Origin: Bacillota bacterium
GTDB taxonomy: Bacteria > Bacillota > Ch66 > Ch109
Direction: 5' to 3'
Assembly (NCBI GenBank): GCA_050952625.1
Contig: JBMNLH010000001.1
Coordinates: 576,001 to 640,000, forward strand
Length of the DNA stretch: 64,000 nt
The notes beneath the pieces are model-generated. The model was not told where the DNA came from. It ran no database searches and saw nothing but the letters and a program-made list of their open reading frames with translations. The position numbers and the translations under genes were made by a program. Below, in pieces: positions 1,220 to 27,241 of this stretch; the stretch's first letter is position 1; each line of letters begins with the position of its first letter.

Positions 1220-1645
1220 TTGAGTGCGACGATGAAATTCTTAACCGAGTATTTGTGGTTTAACACTAGACAGAAAAGGGAGTACCTCAACATCACCCCG
1301 GAACTCCAACGAATCTTAAAGAAAAGCGGCATTCAGGAAGGGATCATGCTGGTTGCCGCGATGCACATAACAGCCGGGATCTACATTAATGACGATGAGA
1401 GCGGAATCATTGGCGATATTGACGAAATGCTGGAAAGGCTGGCCCCTTCTGGACGGGATTACCGGCACCACCGGACCGGTGAGGACAATGGGGATGCTCA
1501 TCTGAAGAATATCTTAGTCGGGCACCAGGTAATTGTCCCGATTACCGACGGCAAATTAGACTTCGGCCCCTGGCAGCAGGTGTATTACGCCGAATTCGAT
1601 GGCCAACGCCGGAAAAGAGTCGTGGTCAAAGTGATGGGAGAATGA
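1220..1645 (+). CDS. yjbQ: YjbQ/UPF0047 family protein (secondary thiamine-phosphate synthase-like)
   Basis: Motifs [22 protein letters not shown] and [16 protein letters not shown]. Confidence 0.85.
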
Positions 1646-2838
1646 GTTGGAAAATTAGGAAGGCAACAATGGATAAAAATTTTCCGCTAGAATTTAAAAT
1701 GTCTCTTGAGCTCGAAGGGGAAAAACGCATTTCCGGCAACGATCTCTTCAACCTGCTGGAAAACATTATGAAGTATGGCTCTATAAGCCGGGCCGCTTCG
1801 GAGTTGGGGGTTTCTTATCGCTATGCCTGGGGCCTGATCAGGGCGGCCGAAAAAGACCTTGGCCTGCAGTTGGTAAACAGGCAGGTGGGCGGTTATGCCG
1901 GTGGAGGAGCATCCCTTAGCCAAGAGGGCCGGGAATTCTTAAACGAGTACAAGACATTTAAACAAGAAATAGATCTCCAGCTAGAACAATTTATCAACCG
2001 GACTGCTTCCAAAAAACAACTTTCTTCTATTAATGAAGCCTTCAATAAGAACTCTTCAGAGCGGCACCTGCTACTGGCTAGCACGATGGAACCAGTCGAA
2101 ACAGGCCTGTTGGATGTCCTCGAAGGGGCCTTTTTCCAGGCGACTGGCGTGTTAGTCAGACATATTGCCCTCGGTAGTGGGCGTGCTCTGGAGATGGCTA
2201 GGACCGGACGGGTGGATATGGTTCTTACCCATGCTCCAGAAATAGAAGAAGAATTTTTGCTCGACGGCTGGGGCAAATCACGAATACCGGTCATGGCGAA
2301 TGACTTTATTTTAGCCGGCCCGTCCTTTGATTCAGCCGGGTTAAAAATGCTCGATCGGGGTGGTGGAGCAAAAGAAGCCTTTCGCCAAATTGCTTATACC
2401 CGCGCCCCTTTTATCAGTCGTGGCGATCGCTCTGGCACCCAATTAAGAGAACTTCAAATCTGGGAATCGGCCGGGATTTACCCCAAGGGAGAGTGGTACA
2501 TCGTCTCTTCCGGAATCGTCGGCAATAGGGGTATTCTGCGGCTTGCCTTGGAGCAGCAGGCTTATGCTCTAGTAGACCGGGCTACTTTTTTACTCTCCAG
2601 CAGCCAAAATAAAATGAACATATTTATTGGGACCGAAGAGGGTAATGCGCTACCTGGGGAACTAGAAAACATCTTTTCTCTGCTCCTTGTTAATCCCGAG
2701 CGGGTACCATTTGTCAATTTTGAAGATGCCTTACTTTTTGCCAAGTGGATTCAGGGAAAAGAAGCTCAGCGAGTTATAGCCGGTTTCGGCGAGGAAAGCT
2801 ACAACCGGCCTTTATTCTCTAGAGTGGTTTCGGAGTAG
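1642..2838 (+). CDS. ModE-type winged-helix regulator fused to a TupA-like (tungstate) periplasmic-binding-protein domain; probable start at ATG 1669
   Basis: The N-terminus has the ModE/YvgK HTH motif [29 protein letters not shown]. The C-terminus has ETGLL, GSGRAL, THAP, MANDF and [10 protein letters not shown], typical of TupA. There is no signal peptide. Confidence 0.8.
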
Positions 2839-2924
2839 ACCCTCCTGTTGCTAAGCAGCTACACAAAAAAGATAAATAATCAATTGCGCAGTTCAACAGA
2901 GGTCAGCGATTGGTGGTTATATTA

Positions 2925-2953
2925 TTGACACAGCTTATTTTATAATTTAACAT
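2925..2953 (+). promoter_or_regulatory. sigma70/SigA-like promoter
   Basis: TTGACA-N17-TAACAT. Confidence 0.5.
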
Positions 2954-3118
2954 AAGAGCTAAATGGAATCTTTCAGCTAGTTCCTGACTTAGATTAGATT
3001 AAATATTCTAAACGGTTTTTCTCCTGCTTGTGATCCGAAGTATATGAAAATTTATTTTTATCATTTTTACTATAGATCCTCATGCCTGACCTTTAGTTAG
3101 TTTGAAATTTTTTGGCCT

Positions 3119-3217: not shown

Positions 3218-3338
3218 CATAAAGTATTGATAACTGGCTTGTACGTGGCTCTTCGTATAAGGGGCATATTATATATCCGCAACTAGTGTAATGATCTTGT
3301 TTGCCGGACTAATAAACAGCGTAAAAAAATTTAAATAA

Positions 3339-3446
3339 TTATCTCCGAGCCTAGTTACCCTAAAGGTTTTCAAGCCCATGGGTACAGGCCGATAGGGTGG
3401 CACTGGAAACGGTGTTGCCTCCCCGTTAATTTTGGAAAGGAGATGA
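3339..3446 (+). ncRNA. Moco-class riboswitch, P3-less (tungsten-cofactor-associated) variant
   Basis: CTCCGAG..CCTAA..GGCCGATAGGG..TGGAAAC..GCCTCCCCGT..GGAAAGGAG, with P1 TTATCTCC/GGAGATGA. There is no P3 between GCCG and AGGG. Confidence 0.85.
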
Positions 3447-3472
3447 TAGTCCTCTAATAGGTTTATTTTATT

Positions 3473-3507
3473 AAAAGCGTCTCTATTCTAGGTGCTTTTT
3501 TCTTTTT
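3473..3507 (+). terminator. intrinsic terminator (riboswitch expression platform)
   Basis: AAAAGCGTCT-loop-AGGTGCTTTT followed by a T tract. Confidence 0.6.
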
Positions 3508-3587: not shown

Positions 3588-6500
3588 ATGCAAGCTACTA
3601 AATGGTATAGGTTTTTACCAGTCCTGCTGGGCGTATTTTTGATTATCGGGACCATCGGCCTGCTGGTGCCCACAGTTGCCTTTGCCGTAGGGGATGACCT
3701 TACCATATCAGGGCCTGGACTGAAAAATCCCGGACCTATAATCATTACCCAGAACCAGCTCCGGGGAACGGAGGCATTACCCGCGGAATTACAAACAGTA
3801 GCAGAAGCGGTTTATTTACCGCAAACTGACGCATGGTACAGTACCATCAACACCTGGCCTACCAAGAGCTGGTACCGGGGGCAGGGCGTCAAATTGACCG
3901 ACCTGCTTAATCTAGCCGGGGGACTCAATGACGAGGCCACCCTGATCAGGTTCACTTCTCGCGACGGCTTTAAAGCCACCTTTACGGTGCAAGAGCTTCT
4001 CGTTGAACCCCGGTATCGTTTCCCTAGTTTCATGGATACCGGCCTCCCCGGGCATCTTCCCGGTGATCCGTCAGAGCCGGTAGAGGTTGAGCCGATCATT
4101 GCCCACAGAAGTTTTACCGCCCATGATATTAGAAATGTTGTGGGAGAAGGCACACTAGAGAATTTCAGCGACGGTGAGGCCAATCATTTGTTATATGGGC
4201 AGCGGGCGGTAACCCAGCAGACCAACGCCAGGTTTGTTAAATATGTAACTGAAATCGAGGTGCTTACCGATCCCGTATCTAAATGGGATAATCCCACGGC
4301 TGATCCGGCACCTGGAGATGCAGAAGTGCCGGTAGGGACCTTGGTGGAACTTCAAAGCCCTTTCAACGATGAGGATAAAGTTCATTACACCCTGGACGGC
4401 AGCGACCCAACCATAAACAGTCCGATGTACAACTGGATTGCCAGTCGGTGGTGGTCATCAAGATCGGATGTTCTGGACGAAATTAATCACCCCATTGAAA
4501 TCACCGATAACACCACCATCAAGGCCTTTGTCACCGGCCCTGGCCGGGCGGACAGCGATATTGTTACTTTTGCGTATCGGGTTCCGCTGACTATCAACCA
4601 GGCTAACCCGGCTAAGGCAATCAAGAACGAGGAATACGCTGGCCATACCTTCACGGCAGTCGGTGGCCAAAAGCCCTACCGCTTTGCTGTCACTGGTGGT
4701 TCCCTGCCGGAAGGCATGAGCCTAAACGAATCATTACTAGAGGGAATACCCGCAGAGAGTGGTACGTTTCCCTTCACCCTAACCGTAACCGACGGTAATA
4801 ACCAGACCGTTAGCCGGGAATTTACCCTGGTGGTTGTGCTCGCCCCTCCAACCCTAAGTACCACCAGTAGCAATGTAGGCCAGAAGATTGAGCTGACCTT
4901 TACCGACGATGCGGTCTGGCGGGAGGCCATCACCGATGTAACCGTTAACGGAAACTCTATTACTGGCCATTATAGTGTTGCCGCCGGAGTAATCACTATT
5001 GACGCTGCTGTGTTTGCGACTGCCGGTGACTATACGATAGCCGTTATCGCTACCGGGTACCTTGAGGCCGTTGTGATACAAAATATTACAGCCGGTACCG
5101 GTCCGAAACTACCGGATGGGGAAATTGTCTTAACTATCAAAGGTGATGGGGTGGCGAATCCCAAGGAGTTTACGCAGTCCCAGTTAGAAGAAATGAATCA
5201 ATGCCAGTATGTTTACAGTTGCATCAACACCTGGCCTAGTAAAAGATGGTATGTGGGTAAAGGAGTTGAATTAAACGACCTGCTCAATCAGGCTGGAGGG
5301 ATCCAACCCGGGGCCACCCTGATTAAATTTACCTCCAAGGATGGCTACTATATGACGTTTACAGTCCAGGAGTTATTAAGAGATAAACGTTATCGTTTCC
5401 CCAACTTCAAGACTGGTGGTGGTGACGGTGACGGGCATATTCCCGGCTCAGCCGCCGGTGCCGTAGAGGTAAAGCCGATTCTTGCCCTGATTAGTGCTGA
5501 GGGTACCGACAATCCCGCTTACATGAACGAGGCGGATGCCCCTCTGTTGATGCTCGGGCAGCGGTCAGTTACGGAGCAAACTGGTCCTTTATTTGCAAAA
5601 TACGTTAAAGAAATCGAAGTACTTACCAATTCTGTGCCTAAATGGGATAGTCCTAAGGCAGAGCCGGGCAGCGGATCAGTACCGGCCGGGACCCTGGTAA
5701 CCCTGAGCAATAACAATATGGACATGGATAAGATTCATTACACTACGGACGGAAGCAACCCGACGCTACACAGTCCGATATATAACTGGATCGCCAAGCG
5801 GTGGTGGGCATCGCGGGGTGAGGACACCGTGGCCCAGATTAATCACCCGATCAAGATCACCAAGGACACAACTATTAAAGCCATTACTATTGGCCCAGGC
5901 CGGGAAAACAGCGACATCGTTACCTTTACTTACAAAGTGACGGGGCCTCTGGTTAGTACCAGTGATCAGATCAGACCCAGCGAAGGTGGCACGGTAAGCC
6001 TTGGGGACGAGGCTGTTCTTGAGATACCGGCCGGGGCACTGACCGGAACCAACCCTATTGAGGTAAAAATAGATCGCGTCACTGAGCCCCCAGCTGCGCC
6101 GACAGGGTTTAAGATTATCGGCAGCGTCTACGAGTTCAACGTGGACGGGAAGACCAGCTACATCTTTAATAAGCCGGTAACTCTCAAGCTTAGCTTTGAT
6201 CCCGAGCGGGTCGGTTCTGACGCAGCTCCTGCTATCCATTACTACGATGAAACCGAGAAAAAATGGGTCAACCTTGGCGGTGAGGTAAACGGTAACACCA
6301 TCAGCGTCCAGGTGGAGCACTTCACCAAATTTGCCGTGCTGGCAGCCTTTCCGGCTAAGGTAACGACGACAATAGAGCCTAGCAAAGGCGGTACCGTAAG
6401 CATCGGGGAAGAGGCGGTTCTGGAAATACCGGCTGGGGCTCTGACCGGGACCAGCCCAGTGGAAGTAACCATTAAGTGCTTGACTGAGCCACCGGTTATC

Positions 6501-7286
6501 CCGGTTGGTTATAAGCTTGTCGGTGGGGTGTACGAGTTCAGCGTGGACGAGAAGACCAGCTACCGCTTTAATAAAGCGGTGACCCTCAAGCTTAGCTACG
6601 ATCCTGAGTTGGTCAGCCCTGAAGAAACTCCAGCCATCCACTACTATGACGAGACCCAGAAAAAGTGGATCAACCTTAGCGGCGAGGCAGCCGGACATAC
6701 CGTAACCGTGGAACTGGATCACTTCACGATCTTTACGGTCATGGTTGCCCCGAAAGCAAAGGAAGTCACCCTAACCGACATTGCCGGCCATTGGGCGGAA
6801 AACCAGATTAAAGAACTGGTTGGGCTTGGGGCTATCAGCGGTTATCCAGACGGCACCTTCAAACCGGACAATAACATCACTCGGGCTGAATTTGCCACGA
6901 TCCTGGTCAAAGCGTTTAAACTGGAACCCCAAAGCGGCCAAGTTTTTGCTGACACCGCCGGTCACTGGGCTAAAGACACCATCGCTACAGCCGCAGCTTA
7001 CGGCATTGTTAACGGCTATGACGGTCATACCTTTGGCCCTAACGATCTGATTACCCGTGAGCAAATGGCCGCCATGATTGTGAATGCGCTCAAACTAACG
7101 CCAGTGTCAGAAGAAAGCTCGTTTATCGACAGTGGCAGCATCTCGGGATGGGCTAGGGTTGCCGTGGCCACTGCGGTGAAAAACGGGTTAATTAACGGTT
7201 ACCCGGATAACACCATCCGTCCCCAGGGCCAGGCCACCCGGGCTGAGGCAGCAGCGATCATGGTGAATGCGTTGCTTAAACTTTAG
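3588..7286 (+). CDS. S-layer-anchored protein: signal peptide, 2x [Oxidored_molyb-like + FN3-associated], Ig-like domains, 2x ZU5-like repeats, 3x SLH
   Basis: Repeated YS(T/C)INTWP..W..GV.L.DLL..AG..A..I.F.S.DG(F/Y)...KYV.EIEV and HYT.DGS.PT. C-terminal SLH motifs DIAGHWA, GYPDGTFKPDNNITRAEFA and TREQMA. Confidence 0.8.
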   Translation: MQATKWYRFLPVLLGVFLIIGTIGLLVPTVAFAVGDDLTISGPGLKNPGPIIITQNQLRGTEALPAELQTVAEAVYLPQTDAWYSTINTWPTKSWYRGQGVKLTDLLNLAGGLNDEATLIRFTSRDGFKATFTVQELLVEPRYRFPSFMDTGLPGHLPGDPSEPVEVEPIIAHRSFTAHDIRNVVGEGTLENFSDGEANHLLYGQRAVTQQTNARFVKYVTEIEVLTDPVSKWDNPTADPAPGDAEVPVGTLVELQSPFNDEDKVHYTLDGSDPTINSPMYNWIASRWWSSRSDVLDEINHPIEITDNTTIKAFVTGPGRADSDIVTFAYRVPLTINQANPAKAIKNEEYAGHTFTAVGGQKPYRFAVTGGSLPEGMSLNESLLEGIPAESGTFPFTLTVTDGNNQTVSREFTLVVVLAPPTLSTTSSNVGQKIELTFTDDAVWREAITDVTVNGNSITGHYSVAAGVITIDAAVFATAGDYTIAVIATGYLEAVVIQNITAGTGPKLPDGEIVLTIKGDGVANPKEFTQSQLEEMNQCQYVYSCINTWPSKRWYVGKGVELNDLLNQAGGIQPGATLIKFTSKDGYYMTFTVQELLRDKRYRFPNFKTGGGDGDGHIPGSAAGAVEVKPILALISAEGTDNPAYMNEADAPLLMLGQRSVTEQTGPLFAKYVKEIEVLTNSVPKWDSPKAEPGSGSVPAGTLVTLSNNNMDMDKIHYTTDGSNPTLHSPIYNWIAKRWWASRGEDTVAQINHPIKITKDTTIKAITIGPGRENSDIVTFTYKVTGPLVSTSDQIRPSEGGTVSLGDEAVLEIPAGALTGTNPIEVKIDRVTEPPAAPTGFKIIGSVYEFNVDGKTSYIFNKPVTLKLSFDPERVGSDAAPAIHYYDETEKKWVNLGGEVNGNTISVQVEHFTKFAVLAAFPAKVTTTIEPSKGGTVSIGEEAVLEIPAGALTGTSPVEVTIKCLTEPPVIPVGYKLVGGVYEFSVDEKTSYRFNKAVTLKLSYDPELVSPEETPAIHYYDETQKKWINLSGEAAGHTVTVELDHFTIFTVMVAPKAKEVTLTDIAGHWAENQIKELVGLGAISGYPDGTFKPDNNITRAEFATILVKAFKLEPQSGQVFADTAGHWAKDTIATAAAYGIVNGYDGHTFGPNDLITREQMAAMIVNALKLTPVSEESSFIDSGSISGWARVAVATAVKNGLINGYPDNTIRPQGQATRAEAAAIMVNALLKL

Positions 7287-7314: not shown

Positions 7315-7439
7315 TGTCATTTTGAGCGAAGCGAAGAATCTTTTCCACGCTGAGCGGTAAGATCCTTCGCTAACGTTCAGGATGACATAGGCACCCGCTA
7401 TTTTCATCAATGGTTGTGCCCGGCGGGCATAGGTGGTTA
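7315..7439 (+). repeat. REP-like palindrome plus a 43-bp conserved repeat (family B)
   Basis: Hairpin TGTCATTTTGAGCGAAGCGAAGAATCT...AGATCCTTCGCTAACGTTCAGGATGACA, then GCTATTTTCAT..TGGTTGTGCCC..GGCAT.GGTGGTTA. A similar composite lies at 40241-40370. Confidence 0.75.
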
Positions 7440-7454
7440 GGGAGAAAAGAGAGC

Positions 7455-9179
7455 ATGATTACGCAATTAATTAATTTTCAATTTAAGAAACCGTTTTATC
7501 AACACCTGATCACTACCTTTATCCTGTTACTGTTCGTAGTTTGGATTAACCTGATGATAGGGCCGGCGTCGGTTTTAGCGGAACCCTCAAAAATGCTGGA
7601 AATAACCGGAGACGCAGTAACAACGCAGGTGGAGTTTACTCTGGCCGAACTGGAAGCGATGGAGCAATACCAACAGGTATACAGTACGGTTAACACCTGG
7701 CCGACCAAAAGATGGTACACGGCCAGAGGGGTTAAAATAAGAGATCTGCTTACTTTAGCCGGGATTAAGGAAGAGGCCAAGCTGATCAGGTTTGTCTCGC
7801 ATGACGGCTACGATGTGACTTTGACGGTTAAGGAATTATTAAAAGACAAGCGTTATTACTACCCGGGTTTAAAGGAGAATCACCCCAGCGACGGGAGCAT
7901 TCCCGGTTCTACTGCGGGGGCACAGGAAGTAGAGCCGATCCTGGCCTTAGTTAGCAGCGAGGGCAGCAATGACCCCAAAAATATGAACGATCGGGATTCC
8001 TTACTGTTGATCTTTGGGCAGCGGGCCATAACCGAACAGACGAATAATCTATTTTTAAAGTACGTCAGTAAAATTGAAGTACTCAGCACCGAGCCGGAAA
8101 AATGGGATGCCCCCAAGGCCAATATACCCAGCGGAACTGTTCTACCTGAGGGAACCCTGCTCACCCTGAGTAATAAAGGGAATAACGAAGATAAGATATA
8201 TTACACCACGGACGGCAGTACGCCAACGGTGAATAGCCCGATGTTTAACTGGAGTGCCAGCCGCTGGTGGCCTTTACGGGACGATTTGGATGGGGTCAAT
8301 TCTCCCATCGAAATCACCAAAGACACGGTGATCAAGGCGATCACCATTGGTCCCGGCAAAGAGGACAGCGAAGTTGTCACCTTTTCCTTTACGGTTGATT
8401 ATACCGGCGAGGCGGTTGATCCAACTAAAGTTTCAGGTGGACCGCCGACCGGGGTAACCCTCGATCGGAATACACTCAACCTCAAGCCTGGCGGTACTTT
8501 CCGACTGGAGGCAACTATCGCCCCGTTCAATGCCGATGACCAGCAGGTGACCTGGCGGTCCAGTGACACCAGGGTGGCCACAGTGGATACCGACGGCCTG
8601 GTGACAGTTGTCGGTCCGGGAACGGCCATCATTACGGTACAAACGGTAGTTGGCAACCATACAGCCACCTGCATTGTCAACGGTCCAAACGCGGAAGACA
8701 GCGGTCAGGATGCGGTTTTTCTTGGCAGCGAGTCTCTGGATAATGCAGCCCGAGAGAAGCCTGTAGAAGCGGTCGAGCCGCTGGAGGAAGAGCCGTTATC
8801 GGTGAATGAGGCTGAACATCACCGGCCAGAAAAAAATGAGGCTGATGCCAACGAAGTGCTGGGAATTGCTCATGAACTGCCGATGAATGAACAAGACGCC
8901 GGTGAGCCGCCAGTGGATGAATTGTCGGTGCCGGAAGGCAAAGGGCAGTACCTGGCAGAAAAAGAAGTTTTAGCCGCCGGCTCCTCGATGACAAATTCGG
9001 TCACAGAGCAGCCGGCTAGCCGGTACTGGCAGGTCTTCGAGGTGTCGCCAGAGGTTGTACTGCCGTTGCCGATGCAGGAGGAACAAAAATGGGCGGATTT
9101 TTACGCGGCAGGAATATTTCTCTTCCTCTTTCTTTCCGGTGTGGGTAAAAGATACGCTGAATATGCAAAGGAGCTATAA
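7455..9179 (+). CDS. secreted protein: Oxidored_molyb-like + FN3-associated + Big_2 + acidic linker + C-terminal TM anchor
   Basis: [21 protein letters not shown]; [10 protein letters not shown]; [14 protein letters not shown] (Big_2); C-terminal [21 protein letters not shown] 7455 follows GGAG, whereas the ORF-track start at 7410 lies inside a repeat. Confidence 0.75.
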
Positions 9180-9184
9180 ATCAA

Positions 9185-9847
9185 GTGATCGAAGCTGTTT
9201 TAATACCCTTAAAAGATACCTTGCATGTTATCTCTTCGGGTTTGCTGATCCCGACCATAACTATCCTGCTGCTGTTATTGGCTTTGACAGCAGTCGAGTT
9301 GGGCGGCCTGTTGACCGAAACTCTTACGGAACGACGCAAAATGAAGGTGAATGTGCCAGAGTTGGTTGATTCTTTTCAGGGAAAAAATGTTGGGGAGATC
9401 TTGGCGATGATTGAGCGCAGCAGCCTTTTTCGACGCCAGAAAACAGCCTTGGGTGAGCTAATCATGCGCAACAGTTTACCCACCGCCACCTTACAGGCCC
9501 TGGCCCGCCGTTTGCTGGCTGGCGAGGAACTGCATTATGCCAGGATAACCGATCGGACCGATTTGGTGGCGCGCTTGGCCCCCATGTTCGGGTTAATGGG
9601 CACGCTGATTCCACTTGGGCCGGGCATGATTGCCCTTGGCCAGGGGGACATCAAGATCCTGGCGGATTCACTCCTGATTGCCTTTGACACAACAGTAGCT
9701 GGCTTGGCTGCTGCTGGTGTCGCCTTTGCCATCTCTCGGCTGCGTAAAAGATGGTACGACGATTACCTGAGTACTCTAGAGGCCTTAATGGAAAGCCTAT
9801 TGGAGGTGTTTGAACGTGGACGGGGGACTGAGAAGCCGGCGGCATAG
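9185..9847 (+). CDS. MotA/TolQ/ExbB proton-channel family protein (HmuU-like)
   Basis: RLAPMFGLMGTLIPLGPG..L..GD...LADSLLIAFDTTVAGL. Confidence 0.88.
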   Translation: MIEAVLIPLKDTLHVISSGLLIPTITILLLLLALTAVELGGLLTETLTERRKMKVNVPELVDSFQGKNVGEILAMIERSSLFRRQKTALGELIMRNSLPTATLQALARRLLAGEELHYARITDRTDLVARLAPMFGLMGTLIPLGPGMIALGQGDIKILADSLLIAFDTTVAGLAAAGVAFAISRLRKRWYDDYLSTLEALMESLLEVFERGRGTEKPAA

Positions 9848-10148
9848 GCCGCTTAAGGTGACTGAGGAGGTCAACCCGATTGAGGGAGTTCTCAACATTG
9901 GGGATGTCATGCTGGTTTTTGCTTGTGGGCTGATGCTGGCTCTGTCCGTTTACTGGAACATCGATCTGGGCCCCATGGGCAAGCGCGTTGACCTGAATCG
10001 GGGACGGGAGGTGACAGAAGTACCGGGGATACGCAATGATTTGATTGAAACCCAGGGCCAGGGAAAGCTCTATGAGAAAATGGGCACGGTCTATAAAGAC
10101 CCGGCAACGGGGCAACTCTTTATGCTGACTGAAAGTAGCGGTGGATAG
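9810..10148 (+). CDS. DUF2149 family protein (ExbD/HmuV-like partner)
   Basis: NPIEGVLNIGDVMLVFACGLMLAL TM segment with Asp, and a G.G..MGTVYKDP.TG C-terminus. It overlaps the ExbB-like gene. Confidence 0.82.
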   Translation: MNVDGGLRSRRHRPLKVTEEVNPIEGVLNIGDVMLVFACGLMLALSVYWNIDLGPMGKRVDLNRGREVTEVPGIRNDLIETQGQGKLYEKMGTVYKDPATGQLFMLTESSGG

Positions 10149-18480: not shown

Positions 18481-18606
18481 TGATTCAAACCGTAAGTATT
18501 TGAAGGATTGAGAAGCGAAATGGGCAAAACCTGAAAAAGCCGTTGGCTCGAAGGGTTTTGCCCAACGCTCCCCATCGAAGATTTATAACTAAAGGAGCAG
18601 GGTGAT

Positions 18607-20175: not shown

Positions 20176-20452
20176 GGTCTCTAAGCGGAAGCTGCTACTT
20201 TTAGACCATCAAAGAGAGAACTATAAGCTTGCAGGTGGTGCTAAAGGCAGTATGGATCTTAAGCCGTAGGTGGAAGGAAAGCGGAGCAAGAAAGCGTTGT
20301 CCAATGGCGACCATACTTGCTCAATCCCGACCTATCACTAAAGTGAAAATTTTTGGGATCTTGACGTTTTTTGAGGATAAAGGGATTTCCACGGCTGACT
20401 TGATTGGCTTTGCTGCCAAGCAAGATCTTAGATAAAGGAGTGAGCGATCCAA

Positions 20453-22684
20453 ATGATGCACAGGATAATTAAGCGCAGGATAATTGTGTTTCTCCAAATC
20501 GCCTTACTGCTGATGATGTGTTTTCCGGCTGTTGTAATGGCAGATAGTTCACCTCAAATAAGTGTGTCGTTGAGTAAAACTACGGCACCAGTTGGCGATA
20601 GCGTGACCGTTTCCGGTACAACGGCATCAGGCGCATGGGTCCCCCTTAAAGTGATTGACGAGGCAGGAAATATAGTAGTATTCGATGCCGGAAAGGCAGA
20701 TCCGAGCGGTAATTACAGTATTGGTTTCATTGTGCCAGCCAGTGCTTCCGGTACATTAACGGTTGTTGTCGGGGAAGGCAGTGGAGTGGCGACCAGTCCC
20801 CTGACTGTGGGAACCGCAGCACCGAAAGCTTCACCAACAAGCGGGTCAGTAGGTACCGGCACTAAAGTGACCTTAATGTCTACAACCGTTGGGGCGAAGA
20901 TTTTCTACACCCTAGATGGCAGTATCCCAACTCAAAACAGCGTAGAATATACCGGTCCAATTACTATTAATGAGTCTGTTACCATCAAGGCCATCGCCAT
21001 TAAGGCTGGTATGAGTGCCAGTACCGTGCTGACCGAGTCGTATACAGTTATTGAATCGATAGTAGATGAAGAAGTAGAGGTTACCGATTCTAATAAGGAA
21101 CTGGCTATAACCGAGGAAACAAAAAGCCTGGGTACCCTCGTCCAAATCAGCGTGCTTGATAACGTGAATGATGCAAAGATCAGTGTCAGTGCGCTTATGA
21201 ATCCCCCTGAATCTGGCATGGTGACCACCAGTGAATTGCCTGCCCTGAACATAGCAGCCACTGACACTTCTTTCAGTTCTGCTCCCATTCAGGTAGCAAT
21301 ACCGGCCGGAGCAAAAATAAGTGCGCCGGAAGGCTGGAACGGCACCATTAACGTTCCTACTGTTCAGCCGGCTAATACGGTAACAATCGATCCGGATCCT
21401 GGCCAAAAGGTCACCGTCAATAGCGTAATCGAGGTTGGCTATGGTGACATACCACTGACTTTTGACAAAGCCGTGCGCCTTGCCATCCCCGGCCAGGCCG
21501 GCAAGGATGCGGGCTACTACCGAAACGGTGAGTTTACTAAAATCCCCAGTTTACCGTCAAATGCTCAGGATGACCAAGACTGGGCGGATGCTAACATAGC
21601 TCCCGGTAAGGATGGCAAGATGGATGTCGGTTCGGACCTAGTCATTTGGACCAAGCACTTCACCAAGTTTGTCAGCTATACGCAGACTGCCACCGGTAGC
21701 CCAGGTGGCGGCGGTGGTGGCACTCCACCATCAAAGGCGGTTACCTCCACTACCGGGTCGGCCAAAGTTACCCCCAGTGCTGGTGGCACCATCAGCCTCG
21801 GAGATGAGGCTACTATTAAAATACCGGCCAATGCCTTAGCCGGAACCAATGCTGTGGAAGTGAAAGTTACAAAAGTGACTGCCCCTCCCGCCGTACCGGC
21901 CGGCTTTAGGCTAGCGGGCAGCGTTTACGAGTTCAGTGTGGGCGGTAAAGATAGCTATAGCTTTGATAAGGAAGTGACTATCACTCTTAGTTTCGATCCC
22001 AATGCTCTCAAACCGGGTGAGACTCCGGCCATTTACTATTACGATCAAAATGCAAAGAAGTGGGTCAAACTTGGCGGTGAGGCAACTGACAACGCCGTAA
22101 CTGTAAAAGTGGATCACTTTACCCAGTTTGCCGTAATGGCGGAGCCGGCCTCGCTAGATCAAACCTTAACCGACATTACCGGCCATTGGGCGGAAAACCG
22201 GATTAAAGAACTGGTTGACCTCGGGGCTATCAGCGGTTACCCAGACGGCACCTTCAGGCCGGACAATAACATCACCCGGGCTGAATTTGCCACGATTCTG
22301 GTCAAAGCGTTTAAACTCGAACCGCAAAGCGGCAAGGTCTTTGCCGATACTACCAGCCACTGGGCTAAAGACACCATCGCTACAGCCGCAGCTTACGGCA
22401 TCGTTAACGGTTATGACGGTAATACCTTTGGCCCTAATGATCTGATTACTCGTGAGCAAATGGCCGCCATGATGGTGAATGCGCTCAAACTAACGCCGGT
22501 GACAGAAGAAATCTCGTTTATAGACAGCGGCAGCATCTCGGGCTGGGCTAGGGCAGCTGTGACCACAGCAGTGAATAACGGGTTAATCAACGGCTACCCT
22601 GATAACACCATCCGTCCCCAGGGCCAGGCTACCCGGGCTGAAGCGGCAACAATCATGGTGAATGCGTTACAAGTAAGAGGGTAA
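20453..22684 (+). CDS. S-layer (3x SLH) scaffold-like protein with Ig-like, FN3-associated and ZU5-like domains
   Basis: Signal peptide, FYTLDGSIPT and WTKHFT. Its SLH repeats are nearly identical to those of 3588-7286. Confidence 0.8.
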   Translation: MMHRIIKRRIIVFLQIALLLMMCFPAVVMADSSPQISVSLSKTTAPVGDSVTVSGTTASGAWVPLKVIDEAGNIVVFDAGKADPSGNYSIGFIVPASASGTLTVVVGEGSGVATSPLTVGTAAPKASPTSGSVGTGTKVTLMSTTVGAKIFYTLDGSIPTQNSVEYTGPITINESVTIKAIAIKAGMSASTVLTESYTVIESIVDEEVEVTDSNKELAITEETKSLGTLVQISVLDNVNDAKISVSALMNPPESGMVTTSELPALNIAATDTSFSSAPIQVAIPAGAKISAPEGWNGTINVPTVQPANTVTIDPDPGQKVTVNSVIEVGYGDIPLTFDKAVRLAIPGQAGKDAGYYRNGEFTKIPSLPSNAQDDQDWADANIAPGKDGKMDVGSDLVIWTKHFTKFVSYTQTATGSPGGGGGGTPPSKAVTSTTGSAKVTPSAGGTISLGDEATIKIPANALAGTNAVEVKVTKVTAPPAVPAGFRLAGSVYEFSVGGKDSYSFDKEVTITLSFDPNALKPGETPAIYYYDQNAKKWVKLGGEATDNAVTVKVDHFTQFAVMAEPASLDQTLTDITGHWAENRIKELVDLGAISGYPDGTFRPDNNITRAEFATILVKAFKLEPQSGKVFADTTSHWAKDTIATAAAYGIVNGYDGNTFGPNDLITREQMAAMMVNALKLTPVTEEISFIDSGSISGWARAAVTTAVNNGLINGYPDNTIRPQGQATRAEAATIMVNALQVRG

Positions 22685-22752
22685 GCAGGTTCAGAAGCTA
22701 GATAAATACTGAAGCGAAATCAAATCAAAATATCCGAGGGACCTTTCTCGAC

Positions 22753-22782
22753 GGCGGAGAAAAAAGAAATTTTTTCTCCGCC
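22753..22782. terminator. strong stem-loop (terminator or mRNA stabiliser)
   Basis: GGCGGAGAAAAAA-loop-TTTTTTCTCCGCC. Confidence 0.5.
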
Positions 22783-22906
22783 CAACTTCTGTCTGATCCT
22801 ATTAACGTTTTCTTAACAGATTTTATTACATTAGTAGCCACTTTTGTCTGATCCCTATAAACCTTATAGGATAAATTAGGATAATATAGTTAGGGAGGCA
22901 TCCTGG

Positions 22907-23467
22907 ATGCAGCGTTTTTATTTATGGAAAGAAAAAGCAGCCGTTGTTGCTTTGTTGTTGTTTTTGGCCGTTTGCGGCTTAGGATGTGGCGGTACTCCGG
23001 CCGAGAAAGCTGTTCCCGGCGTATTGTTTATTGAGGGTAATGGTGTTGAGGGTAAAGTTTCCATCACCCTGGAGGAGTTAAAATCTATGCCGGATGGTCT
23101 GGTAGAAGCTGATTATTTCTCGATTAATTCATATGGGACCAAAAAATATTTTCATTTTAAAGGTATTTGGGTGTGGCATGTTTTAAGGGAAAAGGTTACT
23201 TTGAAGGATTCTGCTGCCAAGGTTGCCTTTATCGCAGAGGATGGCTATAAGGTGGAATATACCCTGGAAGAGGTAAAGCGGGAAGATTATATCGACGAAC
23301 AAAACCCCGAGACAAAATACAAGATGATCCTGGCCTGGGAAGAAAACGGACGGGAATATGACCTGGATAATGGCAATCCCTTTCAACTGGTCGTTGGGCA
23401 GCGAGAGCCCGGGGATGTAAACAAACCCTACTGGGTCCGGAATATAAAGACCATCCGCATTGATTGA
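22907..23467 (+). CDS. lipoprotein with an Oxidored_molyb-like domain
   Basis: Lipobox-like GLGC, then YFSINSYG..FKGI.V..VL..A..V.F.AEDGY...ILAWEENG..PFQLVVGQ..WVRNIKTI. Confidence 0.75.
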   Translation: MQRFYLWKEKAAVVALLLFLAVCGLGCGGTPAEKAVPGVLFIEGNGVEGKVSITLEELKSMPDGLVEADYFSINSYGTKKYFHFKGIWVWHVLREKVTLKDSAAKVAFIAEDGYKVEYTLEEVKREDYIDEQNPETKYKMILAWEENGREYDLDNGNPFQLVVGQREPGDVNKPYWVRNIKTIRID

Positions 23468-23547
23468 GCCGAGCCTGACCGGCCGGGTAGGAGGTTATCT
23501 GAAGCGAAAGACTCCAACGACGTTCACACAGGGAGGGTCTAAACCAT

Positions 23548-24631
23548 ATGGAAGAAAAAATAAATGGCCAAAGGAAATACTACCTGAGCAACCGGGACCT
23601 GTTGATTATCGCGGTATTGAGCGGTATCGGAGGGGTGATGAGCACCTATATCGGCTATTTGGGCAATTTGTTAAACCGCGTTTTCGGCGTTCCCTTCGGT
23701 GCCGGGCAGTTTGTGTCCGGTCTGCACGTTTTTTGGTTCATCCTGGTAGCGGGGCTGGTCAGGAGGCCCGGTGCCGCTACGGCCGCTGGCTTGCTCAAAG
23801 GAGTAATCGAACTGCTCACCGGTAGCACCCATGGGGTTGTGATAGTCCTGATTTCTCTGATCCAGGGGTTGCTGGTCGATGTTGTCCTGCTGCTTACCCG
23901 GCGGCACAATTTACTAAGTTACATGTTGGCTGGCGGAGTGGCGGCTGCATCGAATGTATTTGCCTTTCAACTCCTCTATTTTTCCGGTGCTCCCATGACC
24001 TACCTTCTCCTAATTGGCCTTATGGCCCTTGTTTCAGGTGCTCTTCTGGCGGGCAGCTTCGGACACAGCGTCCTGGAGGTTGTGCACCAGGCCAGACCCT
24101 TTCGTTTTGCGGGTGGATCAGAGGAAGAGCTGGCCGCCGGAGTCACACCAAATGGTGCTAAGAAAAGACTCACCCCCCGTTGCCGGCTGGCAGTCACTAC
24201 CCTGCTGCTGGTGGTGTTCGCGAGTGGGGCGGTTTATTACTTTGTCGCGGTCTTTGAACCTCCCTGGGTAGGGGCCTCGTTGTCAAGTAGCAGGGGCAGT
24301 GCAAAAACCTCTATCTTTTCAGCTCTCCGACTTCGACCAGTATGAAACGACCATAACCGCTGAATTAAAGGGACAGGTTAGTTACGTTCCGCCCCAGGAG
24401 TATACTGGTATACCCTTAAGGATAATTCTTCAGGAGGCCTCGCCTTTGGATGAAGCGAAAAAGCTTAGGGTCATGGCCACCGACGGCTATGAGGTGGAGT
24501 TTGAACTGGAAAAAGTATTTAATGACGATCAGATGCTGCTGATCCGAGAAGGGGATATGCTGCGCCTGATTGCTGGCAATTACGATGGCGGATACTGGGT
24601 GAAGCTGGTTAACCGGATAATCGTGGAGTGA
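23548..24631 (+). CDS. ECF transporter S component (YkoE-like) fused to a C-terminal Oxidored_molyb-like domain; one frameshift
   Basis: Multi-TM protein with LVRRPGAA..LLKGVIELL.G and QGLLVD. Removing one G at 24271-24274 joins it to PRCQVAGAVQKP..YTGIPL..ATDGY..LRLI..YWVKLV. Confidence 0.75.
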
Positions 24632-24821
24632 ACTCGTTTCGGCTTCGTTGAACATCTAGCTCGGGGCTTCAGATGAACTCCTCCTGAAGTTTACACATTG
24701 CAACTACTCATGCATCAAGGATACAACCACCTATGATAATAGTGGCCATATGTCATCCTGAGCGTTAGCACTATTTATCAATAACCACTTATAGAAATGA
24801 AAGTCTTTTGATTCAGATAAG
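24629..24821 (+). mobile_element. small MITE-like element (family A) with a nested family-B/REP fragment
   Basis: TGAACTCGTT..GCT..TGAACATC..CTTCAG..CTGAAG..CTTATAGAA..GTCTTTTGATTCAGATAA, shared with 30329 and 48705. The insert at 24701-24769 is the reverse complement of family B. Confidence 0.6.
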
Positions 24822-24848
24822 CTCTTCTGTTAGCTGGAAGGAGTTTTT

Positions 24849-26405
24849 ATGGTAGAACCGGTTGTTGACATTCAGGAACTCTCTTTTATTTATCTTGGTT
24901 CGAATTCTCCGGCCCTGGAAAAGATTAACCTGCAGGTCTACCCGGGCCAGTTTCTGACAATAACGGGTCCCAGCGGGTGCGGCAAATCCACGTTGGCTCT
25001 GTGCTTGGCTGGCTTTATCCCCCATGCTTATAGCGGGAAAATGGAGGGGACCGTCCGGATAAAGGGCAGAAACACCCGGGACTATCCCAGTGGCGGGCTC
25101 TCCGGCATAGTGGGTTTGGTGCAGCAGGATCCGGAGGCCCAGCTTTGTACCCTGACAGTGAGCGATGAGGTGGCCTTTGGGCCGGAAAACCTGTGTATCC
25201 CGCCAGAAGAGATCCAAGCGCGATGCTATTTTGCCTTGCAAGCGGTAGGTGCCCTGGATTTAAAGGATAGAAAAGTGTACACACTTTCCGGAGGCGAAAA
25301 ACAACGGGTGGCGATTGCCTCTGTGCTGGCGATGAATCCGTCGCTGCTTATCCTGGATGAACCGACAGCCAACCTGGATCCTTCTTGTACCAGGGAGGTG
25401 CTCCAAACTCTAAAAAAATTGAGAGAGGAACAGAAAATCTCGATTATTGTGATTGAGCATCGCCTGGAAAGACTTATCCCTATATCTGACCGCTTGTTGC
25501 TGATGGAAAAAGGAAAAATTATAGGGGAAAGCACGGCTAAAGAGTTCCCTAATAAATATTTCCCGGCCCTTAGCTCGACAGACACCAGCACTGTTTGGCC
25601 GCTGGAGAAACCATCAGCCCTTGAGAAGCAGGCCGAGAAAACGCCCCTTCTGACAATAAAGAATCTTAGAGCTGGGTATGAGGGAAGAAATGTTCTCTCG
25701 GGAATCAGTTTTTGCGCTTATCCCGGCGAAACCATTGCCCTCATGGGGAATAATGGGAGCGGTAAAACTACCCTTTTAATGGCCTTGCTGGGAGTGCTTA
25801 AACCTGAAGCAGGGACAATAATCAACCTTGAAGGACAAGATATAACCGGCGTCAAGGTTACCCGTCGTGCTCAGGACATGGGGCTTACCTTTCAAAATCC
25901 GAACCACCAGATTTTTGAACATACCGTGACTAAAGAAGCAACCCAGGCAGCCCGTTTTTTGAGTAAGAATGCCCAACCAGAAATTGAAGACAGAGTCAAT
26001 CGACTATTAGAAAGGTTCGAGTTGCGGCAATATCGAGATAAGAATCCCTTTACTTTGAGCTTGGGAGAAAAAAAGAGGCTGACTTTGGTTTCCCTTCTGG
26101 CGTATTCTCCCAGGATCTTAATCCTGGATGAGCCCCTCGTTGGTCAGGATAGGGACCGGCTTGACCTTCTTATCGCCGCGCTGCAGGAGCACCGGGCGCG
26201 AGGAGGAGTAACTTTGATGGTCTGCCATGAACCAAATGTGATTGCCTCCTGCTGTCAAAGGGTTCTTTTCCTGGCCAATGGAAAGCTGATCATTGATGCC
26301 CCGGTGAATATAGCCCTGGCAGAATTGGCCCAATTAGGGATGGAAGAGTATTTGCCTTCTGGGTATGAATTTTCTTCATCAGGTGAAAGAAGGTCAGACA
26401 GATGA
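24849..26405 (+). CDS. ECF transporter fused dual ATPase (EcfAA', YkoD-like)
   Basis: GPSGCGKST, LSGGEKQRVA, LDEPT; second cassette GNNGSGKTT, LSLGEKKR, LDEP. Confidence 0.9.
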   Translation: MVEPVVDIQELSFIYLGSNSPALEKINLQVYPGQFLTITGPSGCGKSTLALCLAGFIPHAYSGKMEGTVRIKGRNTRDYPSGGLSGIVGLVQQDPEAQLCTLTVSDEVAFGPENLCIPPEEIQARCYFALQAVGALDLKDRKVYTLSGGEKQRVAIASVLAMNPSLLILDEPTANLDPSCTREVLQTLKKLREEQKISIIVIEHRLERLIPISDRLLLMEKGKIIGESTAKEFPNKYFPALSSTDTSTVWPLEKPSALEKQAEKTPLLTIKNLRAGYEGRNVLSGISFCAYPGETIALMGNNGSGKTTLLMALLGVLKPEAGTIINLEGQDITGVKVTRRAQDMGLTFQNPNHQIFEHTVTKEATQAARFLSKNAQPEIEDRVNRLLERFELRQYRDKNPFTLSLGEKKRLTLVSLLAYSPRILILDEPLVGQDRDRLDLLIAALQEHRARGGVTLMVCHEPNVIASCCQRVLFLANGKLIIDAPVNIALAELAQLGMEEYLPSGYEFSSSGERRSDR

Positions 26406-27241
26406 GTTTTTATCGTAATACTGTCCAGAACCGGATGGCCTCTGTTGTAAAGGGATTTTTCCCCGGCCTGACCTATGTGGATCAATGTTCCCGGTTGCAC
26501 CGGGTTCATCCTTTGGTCAAATTGGTTTTGCTTCTTAGCTTCAGCTTAACTGTTTTTGCTGTACCTTCTTGCCTCGGGGGAATTATTCTTTTCGGCCTGC
26601 TGCTTATCGGTTATGGTTTGGCCGGATTAGGCCTGGGCTTTTTTACGCGCAAGCTTCGCTTTATTCTTGTTTTTGGCCTGTTTATTTTCCTGATCCAGCT
26701 TATTGCGGTCAAAGAAGGCGTTTTGCTCTGGCAATTGTTCCTGGGGCCGATATACTTTTCAGTTTGGTCAGAAGGCCTTTTCGGCGGCTTAAGGATGATG
26801 CTGCGCTTGGTTAATATTATTGGTTCCAGTTATCTATTTGTCGCTACGACCGATCCGAACCGGCTCGCTTATGCCCTGATGCAGGCCGGGCTACCGTACC
26901 GGTTTGGCTTTATGCTCATTACCGCCCTGCGTTTTATTCCTATTTTTCAACTGGAACTGGAGCAGGTGAGGAATGCGCAAATGGCTAAAGGAATTGAAAT
27001 GGAGGGGCTTTCGCCGCGGAAACTCTTAAGGGCGGTCCGGTATCTGCTGGTACCGTTGGTGATATCTACGTTAAGCAAGGTTGATTATCTGACCATTTCG
27101 ATGGAGAGCCGGGCTTTTGGCCTCTATCCGGCAAGAAGTTACCAGCATTCCCAGGCCTTATCGAGGAATGATAAAATAGCCCTCTTTGTAGTTCCTCTTT
27201 TTTTTGGCCTTTTTACTTTCTTTCTAAACTACCTAAAGTGA
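26402..27241 (+). CDS. ecfT: ECF transporter transmembrane T component
   Basis: LHRVHPLVKL, ALRFIP, AQMAKG and MESRAF coupling motifs. Confidence 0.88.
   Translation: MSFYRNTVQNRMASVVKGFFPGLTYVDQCSRLHRVHPLVKLVLLLSFSLTVFAVPSCLGGIILFGLLLIGYGLAGLGLGFFTRKLRFILVFGLFIFLIQLIAVKEGVLLWQLFLGPIYFSVWSEGLFGGLRMMLRLVNIIGSSYLFVATTDPNRLAYALMQAGLPYRFGFMLITALRFIPIFQLELEQVRNAQMAKGIEMEGLSPRKLLRAVRYLLVPLVISTLSKVDYLTISMESRAFGLYPARSYQHSQALSRNDKIALFVVPLFFGLFTFFLNYLK

Follow-up and report, generated by a model that had tools for sequence, protein, structure and literature searches.

A Riboswitch-Linked ECF Transporter Island with Sulfite Oxidase-Like Surface Domains: A Candidate Salvage System for the Tungsten/Molybdenum Cofactor

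In the part of the 2013 survey of riboswitch regulons that covers coenzyme uptake, the categories are B12, thiamin, riboflavin, queuosine and folate, and none is given for the molybdenum cofactor (Moco) (PMC3766115). The passages of a 2021 review that treat the supply of Moco state that it is not taken up as a nutrient and is made de novo, with Caenorhabditis elegans as the sole known exception (PMC9026282). Here we analysed 64,000 nt of DNA from a Bacillota bacterium (GenBank assembly GCA_050952625.1, contig JBMNLH010000001.1, positions 576,001-640,000 of the forward strand); this whole stretch is called the window. Its positions 1642-27241 hold an island with 12 domains resembling sulfite oxidase (SUOX), an energy-coupling factor (ECF) transporter and two riboswitches of the class that senses Moco or the tungsten cofactor (Tuco). 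We consider it rather probable that the island is a salvage importer of preformed W/Mo pyranopterin cofactor. The form imported is probably nucleotide-free metal-molybdopterin (metal-MPT), and the island is probably the first uptake system for the Mo/W cofactor in a prokaryote.

An earlier note, made from the sequence alone, had proposed that the SUOX-like domains capture the cofactor or its metal, and knew of no characterised bacterial system of this kind. Our literature search, which covered the main texts of papers outside subscription, likewise found no described Moco or Tuco uptake system in bacteria or archaea among the papers listed; its matches on Moco uptake concerned nematodes and one speculation on a cargo of a type 11 secretion system (T11SS). 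Relatives of the island genes may already be listed among the riboswitch-associated genes of unknown function in Figure S4/Table 1 of Regulski 2008 or in the RegPrecise lists.

For several parts of the island, described counterparts exist. PruR is reported as a Sec-exported periplasmic protein with a truncated SUOX fold, in which the Cys that ligates Mo is missing and pterins are bound as a ligand and not as a prosthetic group (PMC11194511). The ExbB and DUF2149 protein families are given as HmuU and HmuV of the heme operon of Porphyromonas gingivalis (PMC11681262). In the account of Regulski 2008, Moco riboswitches classically govern oxyanion transporters and some precede Moco enzymes. The 176 Moco RNAs were split there into a P3-containing and a P3-lacking group, and the latter (58 RNAs) nearly always belonged to organisms and operons of Tuco metabolism. 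The Moco RNA of E. coli was shown genetically to be an OFF switch, and an operon of Syntrophomonas wolfei includes other genes of unknown function (PMC2408646).

Cofactor Biosynthesis Genes in Genomes Carrying the Module

The strongest support for salvage came from carriers of the transporter that have genes of the AOR family of tungstoenzymes and lack MoaC, MoeA and a TupA-like oxyanion binder. When the S part of the island's ECF transporter was used as the query, matches were obtained in 58 of the 401 genomes of our phylum sample. Orthologues with at least 50% identity were present in 24 of the 401 (including the window's genome), mostly as open frames of 345-498 aa, that is, as intact fusions of the S part with a SUOX-like domain. 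These 24 genomes and 30 further carriers from a species-wide scan gave 54 system-bearing genomes, in which the cofactor genes were tested. Both MoaC and MoeA_N were missing in 19 of the 54 (3 of the 24 and 16 of the 30). AOR-family genes were found in 18 of these 19 (3/3 and 15/16), with 1-9 matches each.

The three auxotrophs of the phylum sample were G350 (95% complete, 20 contigs), G281 (97%, 8 contigs) and G383 (97%, same genus as G281). They also lacked the C-domain of MoaA, and the only PF00994 match in each had the length of CinA. G350 and G383 showed three AOR-family matches each and G281 showed one; G350 also has a selenocysteine-containing MopB enzyme. Among the 30 further carriers, MoaC was present in 13, MoeA_N in 14 and AFOR_C in 29. 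The 16 auxotrophs among them comprised all ten of the archaea, both genomes from Thermotogae, the one from Bipolaricaulota and three from Bacillota, and 15 of them had 2-9 AOR matches. Eight of the ten archaeal carriers without MoaC were Asgard archaea, one belonged to the Methanomassiliicoccales and one to the Methanobacteriota. A TupA-like binder was seen in 13 of the 14 prototrophs included in the comparison, but in not one of the 19 auxotrophs. As a screen for ModA or WtpA, PF13531 matches nearly everything and only the strength of the match is usable; strong ModA-type matches (E < 1e-30) were restricted to prototrophs.

The riboswitches of the auxotrophs were found at further genes. G281 and G383 have only two Moco riboswitches apiece; the first belongs to the ECF operon, and the other lies before a NAD-type, cofactor-independent aldehyde dehydrogenase (L057, L058). 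In G350 (L059), tandem Moco riboswitches precede an FeFe hydrogenase, which is followed by an ECF S component of family PF12822. The riboswitch-linked aldehyde dehydrogenase and FeFe hydrogenase may be cofactor-independent substitutes for tungstoenzymes. B12 regulons are known for this arrangement, in which a single OFF switch governs both an uptake operon and a substitute enzyme that works without the cofactor.

Besides the fused S component, we observed a split variant with weak S matches (about 30% identity, unfused, 190-215 aa). Next to its S gene lie genes for lipoprotein-like SUOX proteins or a separate S-domain-like open reading frame (ORF), together with EcfA. One such locus (L035) has a Moco riboswitch directly upstream. 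Three loci from the closest relatives, which are of the same family as the window's genome (L007, L008 and L009 in genomes G002, G001 and G004), encode an unfused PF09819 S component, EcfA and proteins with 1-2 lipoprotein-like SUOX domains. In G005, a genome of the same genus with 78% completeness, no fused S component of the window type was found.

In the 401-genome sample, AFOR_C was present in 240 genomes and MoaC in 276, and 39 of the 240 AOR-bearing genomes had no MoaC. The distribution of the transporter is descriptive (relatives are not independent, and the class of split variants was defined after seeing the data): the fused orthologue was present in 6 of the 39 genomes with AOR and without MoaC (fused or split in 18), in 17 of the 201 with both (32), in 1 of the 75 with MoaC only, which is the window's own genome (7), and in none of the 86 with neither (1). 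The remaining 21 genomes with AOR, without MoaC and without an S match included 12 with PF00174 matches, one of which was a true SUOX enzyme. At the PF00174 loci of these genomes, a Moco riboswitch lay directly upstream of a small SUOX-like gene in 7/9 loci, and EcfA-like genes followed this gene in four of the nine.

Fold, Cysteine Content and Export of the SUOX-Like Domains

The domains were classified by a phmmer self-search of the six-frame translation of the window. The resulting count of 12, to which Pfam contributed, agreed with the about 12 copies at many envelope levels that had been noticed before. Type A (about 185 aa) occurs in five copies, two in the frame 3588-7286 and one each in 7410-9179, 10244-11689 and 11945-13372. 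Type B (about 140-165 aa) occurs in four copies in the part 13549-18480 of a giant secreted protein. The domains of a lipoprotein and of the S fusion are related to type A (phmmer E 3e-9 and 2e-4, respectively). An odd domain of 195 aa (window 17086-17680) lies between type B copies 3 and 4. It matched PF00174 weakly (E 0.07), its counterpart in the fusion protein of L053 did so with E 3.2e-6, and it also overlapped the S-fused domain in phmmer. PF00174 (Oxidored_molyb) reached the cut-off in four proteins (66.4, 29.6, 28.8 and 24.9 bits) and stayed just below it in two more; all five PF00174 matches of the 2.9-Mb genome fall in the island. By hhalign, type A was related to type B (87%, E 3.7e-6) and the S-fused domain to a genuine SUOX enzyme of another genome (93%, E 2.9e-7).

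Compared by sequence with the PDB, the individual domains and the type B profile gave only weak matches to sulfite oxidase (E 0.04-0.6), and the fold had to be shown by modelling. AlphaFold2 models were built from alignments of natural homologues for the odd domain plus type B (17086-18192, 54 rows; pLDDT 90.1) and for type A (7575-8135, 22 rows; pLDDT 85.8, pTM 0.81). Foldseek gave 45 and 38 matches, respectively, with E ≤ 1e-3, and those listed were members of the sulfite oxidase family and PruR. In VIA-align, type B was superimposed on chicken sulfite oxidase with Z 15.7 (root mean square deviation (rmsd) 2.5 Å, 132 residues), on PruR (7kom) with Z 14.0 and on YedY with Z 10.2. For type A the values were Z 15.3 for SoxC (rmsd 2.6 Å, 136 residues), 15.2 for SorA (rmsd 2.3 Å, 136 residues), 14.3 for PruR (7rkb; rmsd 2.4 Å, 127/146 residues) and 11.6 for YedY, and the first unrelated fold was Wza with Z 7.0. 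As judged from these models, the type A and type B domains adopt the SUOX/PruR pterin-binding fold, and the SUOX/YedY assignment made before thus held for both classes. The odd domain (model residues 1-198) gave weak beta-grasp matches only (Z 4.4), because the type B part of the joint model filled the match list.

One Cys was invariant in 31/31 aligned type B domains and at least 90% conserved in the 54-row alignment of wider homologues, which includes sequences labelled Methanotrichaceae, Methanoplanus and Bathyarchaeota. It is located 18-25 residues upstream of a W-x-G-x-P-L-W motif, in the segment where SUOX enzymes carry the Mo ligand. In type A, hhalign aligned the SUOX Cys to the Thr/Ser of an I-N-T/S motif, and the aligned region of the S-fused domain and the SUOX enzyme begins after the Cys position. 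As 8 of the 12 domains have no Cys, they look PruR-like, and the remaining four keep a possible metal ligand. The PruR precedent (PMC11194511) favours, by analogy, the view of the earlier note that the domains are binding modules rather than enzymes. The 221 relatives of the odd/type B proteins are unnamed or automatically named after YedY. A complex prediction for the S-fused domain and the lipoprotein (score 0.00, mark 0.32) spoke neither for nor against binding.

All carriers of the domains begin with a hydrophobic signal or anchor. Inspection by eye of the window proteins and of 15 type B proteins from other genomes revealed no conserved twin-arginine (RR) motif, and no electron-transfer partner (heme, cytochrome, YedZ-like) or dimerisation domain was found among the Pfam matches of the island ORFs. 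Both results are in line with the Sec-type export and the lack of electron-transfer partners that had been proposed from the sequence. The N-terminus of the S component is rich in K/R and is followed by about six hydrophobic segments, a loop that is again K/R-rich and one extra transmembrane (TM) segment. According to the positive-inside rule, its SUOX-like domain would therefore be outside the cell. The architecture of S part, TM segment and SUOX-like domain is kept in 19 aligned orthologues. By definition, ECF systems operate with no extracytoplasmic binding protein; the S-SUOX fusion and the secreted SUOX-like proteins encoded in the same operons depart from this rule.

Conservation, Gene Content and Genomic Setting of the Island

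In 20 fetched neighbourhoods, large islands with the gene order of the window were present in 5 loci and minimal operons in 13. A minimal operon consists of a riboswitch and genes for a fusion of a metallophosphoesterase to the odd domain (about 430-530 aa), a secreted protein of about 335-350 aa that ends in type B, the S fusion, EcfA and EcfT. This phosphoesterase belongs to the Icc/Rv0805/GpdQ class of phosphodiesterases (E 1e-6), and its fusion partner is a PF00174-like domain (E 3.2e-6). Since the enzyme is physically tied to a pterin-binding fold, a phosphorylated or nucleotide-linked pterin ligand can be argued for. A Moco riboswitch was located upstream on the same strand in 17/20 of the first loci and in 3/5 further bacterial loci. 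L038, L040, L042, L128 and L133 yielded none, and neither did the short loci L033, L034, L036 and L007-L009; contig ends or short flanks may explain some of these absences.

A scan with the fusion alignment over one genome per species (185,579 species) yielded 236 relatives. They were found in Syntrophomonas, Pelotomaculum, Dethiobacteria and Desulfotomaculaceae, in the isolates Thermovorax subterraneus DSM 21563, Anoxynatronum buryatiense and A. sibiricum, in Thermotogae and Bipolaricaulota, and in the archaeal groups Hermod-, Odin-, Heimdall- and Promethearchaeota, Methanomassiliicoccales and Methanobacteriota. The genes for the S fusion, EcfA and EcfT were neighbours in every one of the 42 long loci except L113, which lies at a contig end, and 1-2 SUOX-like genes preceded the S fusion in nearly all. 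ExbB adjoins type A genes in L037, L039, L040 and L041 and in 8/42 long loci, and ExbB and DUF2149 of the large islands sit among type A genes. A SUOX-like lipoprotein is encoded directly upstream of the S gene in L037-L041. The public names of the relatives (561 clusters) were generic, namely 'ECF transporter S component', 'thiamin/HMP transport permease', 'hypothetical' and, once, 'molybdopterin-dependent oxidoreductase'. The combination of riboswitch, S fusion and ECF genes, with ExbB/DUF2149 in the large form, is thus kept across Clostridia-like Bacillota and reaches the archaea, so that the neighbourhood check named in the earlier note came out in its favour.

The two Moco riboswitches predicted earlier for the island were recovered on the + strand at 3331-3458 (RF01055, 68.1 bits) and 11699-11819 (74.4 bits), both above the gathering score of 36 bits. 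The positions of the P3 stem are deleted from both aptamers in the cmscan alignment, so both are of the P3-lacking type. A terminator-like hairpin of 10 pairs and a T run (3473-3499) lies behind riboswitch 1; behind riboswitch 2 no terminator-like site was listed. The riboswitches head two co-oriented gene sets. A regulator gene at the head of the island (1642-2838, +) encodes a ModE/LysR-type helix-turn-helix (HTH_1, E 3.6e-9) and a TupA-like oxyanion-binding domain (PBP_like_2, E 3e-22), and the latter has 38% identity to the riboswitch-controlled TupA-like binder of the host genome. Regulator homologues are encoded near the system in L063, L071, L086, L087, L091, L096, L099 and L107. Directly upstream of the regulator gene lie a 249-aa ORF without Pfam match (310-1059) and a UPF0047 (YjbQ-like) gene (1220-1645).

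Set 1, behind riboswitch 1, comprises five genes on the + strand. The first encodes an SLH-anchored surface protein of 1232 aa (3588-7286; SLH E 5.6e-43, Shr-like_HID E 4.4e-23, Oxidored_molyb E 1.7e-5). It harbors two type A domains (phmmer, frame aa 71-241 and 516-694), two Fn3_assoc domains, a He_PIG domain and the Shr-like HID domain, which lies ahead of the second type A domain; PF07550 was seen again in three relatives of the odd/type B family. The SLH protein is followed by a membrane-anchored protein of 589 aa (7410-9179) with type A, Fn3_assoc, Big_2 and an acidic/Pro-rich linker (Pfam) and a C-terminal anchor (hydrophobic segment aa 561-579). Further downstream are an ExbB/TolQ-type proton channel protein (9185-9847; MotA_ExbB E 6.2e-9, three hydrophobic segments), a DUF2149 protein with one N-terminal TM segment (9810-10148; E 2.1e-7), which is the probable partner of ExbB, and a stalk protein (10244-11689) with type A, Fn3_assoc and Cu_amine_oxidN1 (Pfam) and two frame breaks.

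Set 2 starts with the giant secreted protein (11945-18480, +; Oxidored_molyb E 3.1e-18), which has frame breaks within 13372-13560. Its domains follow in the order type A, Fn3_assoc, Big_2, LRR_5, Big_2, GEVED-type repeats, three type B copies, the odd domain, a fourth type B copy and a tail. A middle domain (window 15310-15730) had been regarded by eye as DUF4430/transcobalamin-like; this idea was dropped as Pfam gave no support. The next genes, all on the + strand, encode a secreted purple-acid-phosphatase-like metallophosphoesterase (18607-20175; Pur_ac_phosph_N E 1.9e-21, Metallophos E 4.3e-17) and an SLH-anchored surface protein without a SUOX-like domain (20453-22684; SLH E 4.9e-46, CHB_HEX_C_1, Big_6). 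In the PDB, the metallophosphoesterase matched purple acid phosphatases by sequence (E 2.9e-11) and, more weakly, the diphosphonucleotide phosphatase 3zk4 (E 6.3e-5). The lipoprotein (22907-23467, +) is a single SUOX-like domain (Oxidored_molyb E 6.3e-7, 29.6 bits) with a lipobox-like LAVCGLGC seen by eye. The S fusion gene (23548-24631, +; ABC_cobalt (PF09819) E 1.6e-21, Oxidored_molyb E 1.1e-6) comprises the PF09819 part at 23548-24345, the extra TM segment and the C-terminal SUOX-like part at 24299-24631. A fused EcfA-EcfA' ATPase (24849-26405, +; ABC_tran E 8.1e-62 in two stretches) and EcfT (26402-27241, +; CbiQ E 2.5e-28) follow, so that S component, two ABC ATPase domains and T component, a complete ECF set, are all present.

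Pfam thus confirmed the ExbB/DUF2149 pair, the secreted phosphoesterase, the ECF ATPase and T component, the S-SUOX fusion and the ModE-TupA regulator that had been named from the sequence. The earlier picture of the island stood in its gene content; three of the genes are interrupted in this assembly, namely the gene from 10244 (near 10470 and 11272), the giant gene (13372-13560) and the S gene (24271). The ORFs elsewhere in the window, including 27000-64000, are clean, and the indels are concentrated in the island. We aligned contigs of four independent metagenome runs to window 10200-24700. Base 24271 was absent in 3/3 independent contigs crossing it, and these contigs showed no other differences. 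One base was added behind 10470 in 2/3 covering runs, base 11272 was absent in 1/2 covering runs, and bases 13488, 13491 and 13560 were absent in the sole covering contig (X8). With these corrections, an S fusion of 360 aa, the same length as the Thermovorax orthologue, and a 481-aa gene from 10244 are reopened; the LRR region of the giant gene needs further changes to reopen the frame. As independent contigs carry indels at these sites and the frames reopen, we concluded that the frame breaks are assembly errors or strain variants and not decay.

The host genome (2.9 Mb, 9 contigs, 96% complete; the window has 48% G+C) makes the cofactor de novo, with MoaC, the MoaA C-domain, two MoeA and MogA/MoaB-type genes clustered on contig 2. 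It has three MopB-type (PF00384) loci with four matches, and the family screen found no AOR gene. One of the two MoeA genes (G000:C2:100841-102571, with equivalents elsewhere) is an ORF of 640-790 aa, the remainder of which weakly matches PF13531 (ModA-like); this suggests a MoeA fused to an oxyanion-binding domain. Seven Moco riboswitches were found in total, two in the island and five elsewhere. One of the latter lies before an ABC importer of the TupA type and another before a Peripla_BP_2/FecCD importer that is accompanied by a radical SAM gene. A third is found at a TrmO_N-FmdE fusion next to a ModD-like gene and a fourth at HypA/HypB/NiFe hydrogenase; the downstream target of the fifth is ambiguous. 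The genome has two riboswitch-controlled oxyanion-type importers outside the island. About 10 kb upstream of the window, L001 (G000:C1:556001-576000) carries two divergent Moco riboswitches, one before the Peripla_BP_2/FecCD/ABC type II importer, the radical SAM gene and an unassigned 385-aa ORF, the other before the TrmO_N-FmdE fusion and the ModD-like QRPTase. Since two more Moco riboswitches are located there, the island is part of a larger Moco-regulon neighbourhood. The riboswitch upstream of the hypA, hypB and NiFe hydrogenase operon (L004, G000:C8:48001-61500) scored 50.4 bits, and this target is unusual for the class.

The + strand of the window also carries a c-di-GMP-I riboswitch (41495-41578, 87.7 bits), a T-box leader (59401-59644, 111 bits) and a 6S RNA (63058-63238, 97.9 bits). 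Sequence of the island was present in metagenomes of anaerobic digesters and bioreactors (20 rows, 18 studies, some of them possibly the source), and in four RNA runs 0.07-0.08 of the sampled words of the stretch were present.

Proposed Salvage, Rival Explanations and Known Systems

The salvage of preformed cofactor could proceed as follows. When the intracellular cofactor is low, the two P3-lacking riboswitches would let the two transcription units through. Sec-exported domains of the SUOX/PruR fold on S-layer-anchored, membrane-anchored and lipoprotein carriers would capture the cofactor outside the cell, and the type B domains may do so through their invariant Cys. The secreted metallophosphoesterase would trim phosphoester-linked forms, for example dinucleotide cofactors. 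In an Isd-like relay, the ligand would then reach the outward SUOX-like domain on the ECF S component and be imported by EcfA/A'/T, and ExbB/DUF2149 may energise release or hand-off.

Several observations weigh against salvage. The window's genome has MoaA, MoaC, two MoeA and a riboswitch-controlled TupA-type transporter and lacks AOR, and the system can therefore be auxiliary at most there. MoaC, MoeA_N or both are kept in 35/54 carriers. The enrichment of the strict fused orthologue is modest (6/39 genomes with AOR and without MoaC versus 17/201 with both), in counts that are descriptive as stated. The auxotrophs have weak PF13531 matches (E 1e-8 to 2e-20), which leave room for a WtpA-like oxyanion binder, and the 30 further carriers (G401-G430) are metagenome-assembled genomes of unstated completeness. 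MoaE (PF02391) was not found in G000, G025, G350, G383 and G281, though two of these five have MoaA, MoaC and MoeA; the result is uninformative, since either the MPT synthase is divergent in these genomes or the screen misses it. As MoaE escaped detection in the two prototroph controls too, genes may be overlooked by family screens. No conserved Cys is present in type A, the lipoprotein and the S-fused domain, and hhalign of type B with a real SUOX enzyme aligned the C-terminal part only, so that the type B Cys is not placed as the equivalent of the Mo ligand. Free Moco is described as chemically labile (PMC9026282). Ligand binding and transport are predictions from sequence and models.

In place of the cofactor, the island might handle its metal: the SUOX-like domains would concentrate tungstate, molybdate or a metallophore complex, and the ECF transporter would import the oxyanion as ModABC and TupABC do. 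The classical role of Moco riboswitches at oxyanion transporters, the ModE-HTH/TupA-like regulator at the head of the island and the cofactor synthesis of the window's genome all fit this explanation, and ECF systems are known to import the metals Co and Ni. The fold, however, is a pterin-binding one, oxyanion uptake has no use for a phosphodiesterase fused to a SUOX-like domain, and the host genome already has two riboswitch-controlled importers of the oxyanion type. The 19 carriers without MoaC and MoeA could not use the oxyanion, yet 18 of them keep AOR genes. The metal capture that the earlier note had left as an alternative thus fits the auxotrophs poorly, and we regard it as quite unlikely. 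Import of a metal-free pterin, such as MPT, cyclic pyranopterin monophosphate (cPMP), a breakdown product or an unrelated pterin, would resemble the binding of monapterin/neopterin by PruR. It agrees with the PruR-like fold without Cys in 8/12 domains and with the automatic naming of S components of the PF09819 family as thiamin/HMP permeases, and cPMP is the most stable intermediate of cofactor synthesis. But the auxotrophs have neither MoeA nor a protein of MogA/MoaB length, so that in them MPT could not be metallated nor cPMP processed; the ligand of the riboswitch class is Moco/Tuco, and type B keeps its invariant Cys. We therefore consider this explanation improbable.

The SUOX-like domains could also be extracellular Moco enzymes, MsrP/YedY-like or sulfite-oxidising, next to an ECF transporter for an unrelated vitamin. 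PF00174 was above the cut-off in four proteins, the Cys of type B is invariant, and some Moco riboswitches precede Moco enzymes. However, the by-eye inspection gave no conserved twin-arginine signal, and the Pfam results of the island contain no partner of the heme, cytochrome or YedZ-like kind. The domains are cut down to a PruR-size core of about 120-190 aa, one of them is fused to the S component, and the module is present in genomes that are unable to make the cofactor. This makes enzymes a very improbable explanation. Salvage of the preformed cofactor accordingly remains the reading that we favour. A wider proposal, which we put forward tentatively and hold to be possible though on balance doubtful, is that Mo/W cofactor auxotrophy is common in strict anaerobes and sustained by ECF salvage, that the large form of the system strips foreign holo-enzymes with its wall-spanning HID-like/SUOX-like arrays, much as Shr/Isd take heme from hemoglobin, and that the phosphoesterase does the trimming and ExbB/DUF2149 supplies the power. 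In that case the cofactor would be a 'vitamin' traded within anoxic communities.

If salvage is true, the obligatory de novo synthesis of Moco would be overturned for a large set of anaerobes, and it would become clear how AOR-rich genomes can function when they lack moa/moe genes, as observed here in Asgard archaea, Thermotogae, Bipolaricaulota and several families of Bacillota. The cofactor would join the metabolites exchanged in syntrophic communities, for example in anaerobic digesters. It would also mean that an ECF transporter works with extracytoplasmic binding domains, and that defined proteins may serve to stabilise and carry a cofactor that is otherwise labile. Carriers available in culture are Thermovorax subterraneus DSM 21563 and two Anoxynatronum species.

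Among the known systems, PruR (PDB 7kou, 7kom, 7kp2 and 7rkb) shares with the island domains a small Sec-exported binder of the SUOX fold (Z 14.0-14.3, rmsd 2.4 Å, 119-127 of 134-146 residues). It differs in that PruR partners the GGDEF-EAL sensor DcpA and binds non-Moco pterins, whereas the island has an ECF transporter, a phosphoesterase, Moco riboswitches and the type B Cys, and no GGDEF/EAL match as in a DcpA-type partner among the Pfam results of its ORFs. With SUOX, SorA, SoxC and YedY/MsrP (PF00174), the island domains have in common the fold (Z up to 15.7) and a C-terminal 'NG..L....PLRL' motif. Unlike these enzymes, the island domains come without dimerisation or electron-transfer domains and without a conserved Tat signal, the Cys is missing from type A, the lipoprotein and the S-fused domain, and 12 copies are carried at the surface. 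The Isd/Shr systems and the Hmu system of Porphyromonas resemble the island in having repeats of a cofactor-binding type at several envelope levels, and the Shr-like HID, ExbB and DUF2149 are shared. NEAT, HmuY or TonB-dependent receptor domains were not among the Pfam results of the island ORFs, the importer is of the ECF and not of the type II ABC type, and the ligand class is different.

Preformed Moco is also taken up from the diet by Caenorhabditis elegans, as reported for protein-bound cofactor; that system is eukaryotic and its transporter is not known. TupABC, ModABC and WtpABC belong to the same Moco-riboswitch regulon, but import tungstate or molybdate for de novo synthesis. The ECF vitamin transporters of the YkoEDC type (PF09819) have the PF09819 S component, the fused EcfA-A', the CbiQ-type EcfT, the arrangement in one operon and the control by a cofactor riboswitch in common with the island. 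The riboswitch of the island is of the Moco/Tuco class, which does not appear among the ECF or riboswitch-controlled coenzyme uptake systems covered in PMC3766115. In contrast to the vitamin transporters, the S component of the island adds a TM segment and an outward SUOX-like domain, and its operon also encodes secreted binding proteins.

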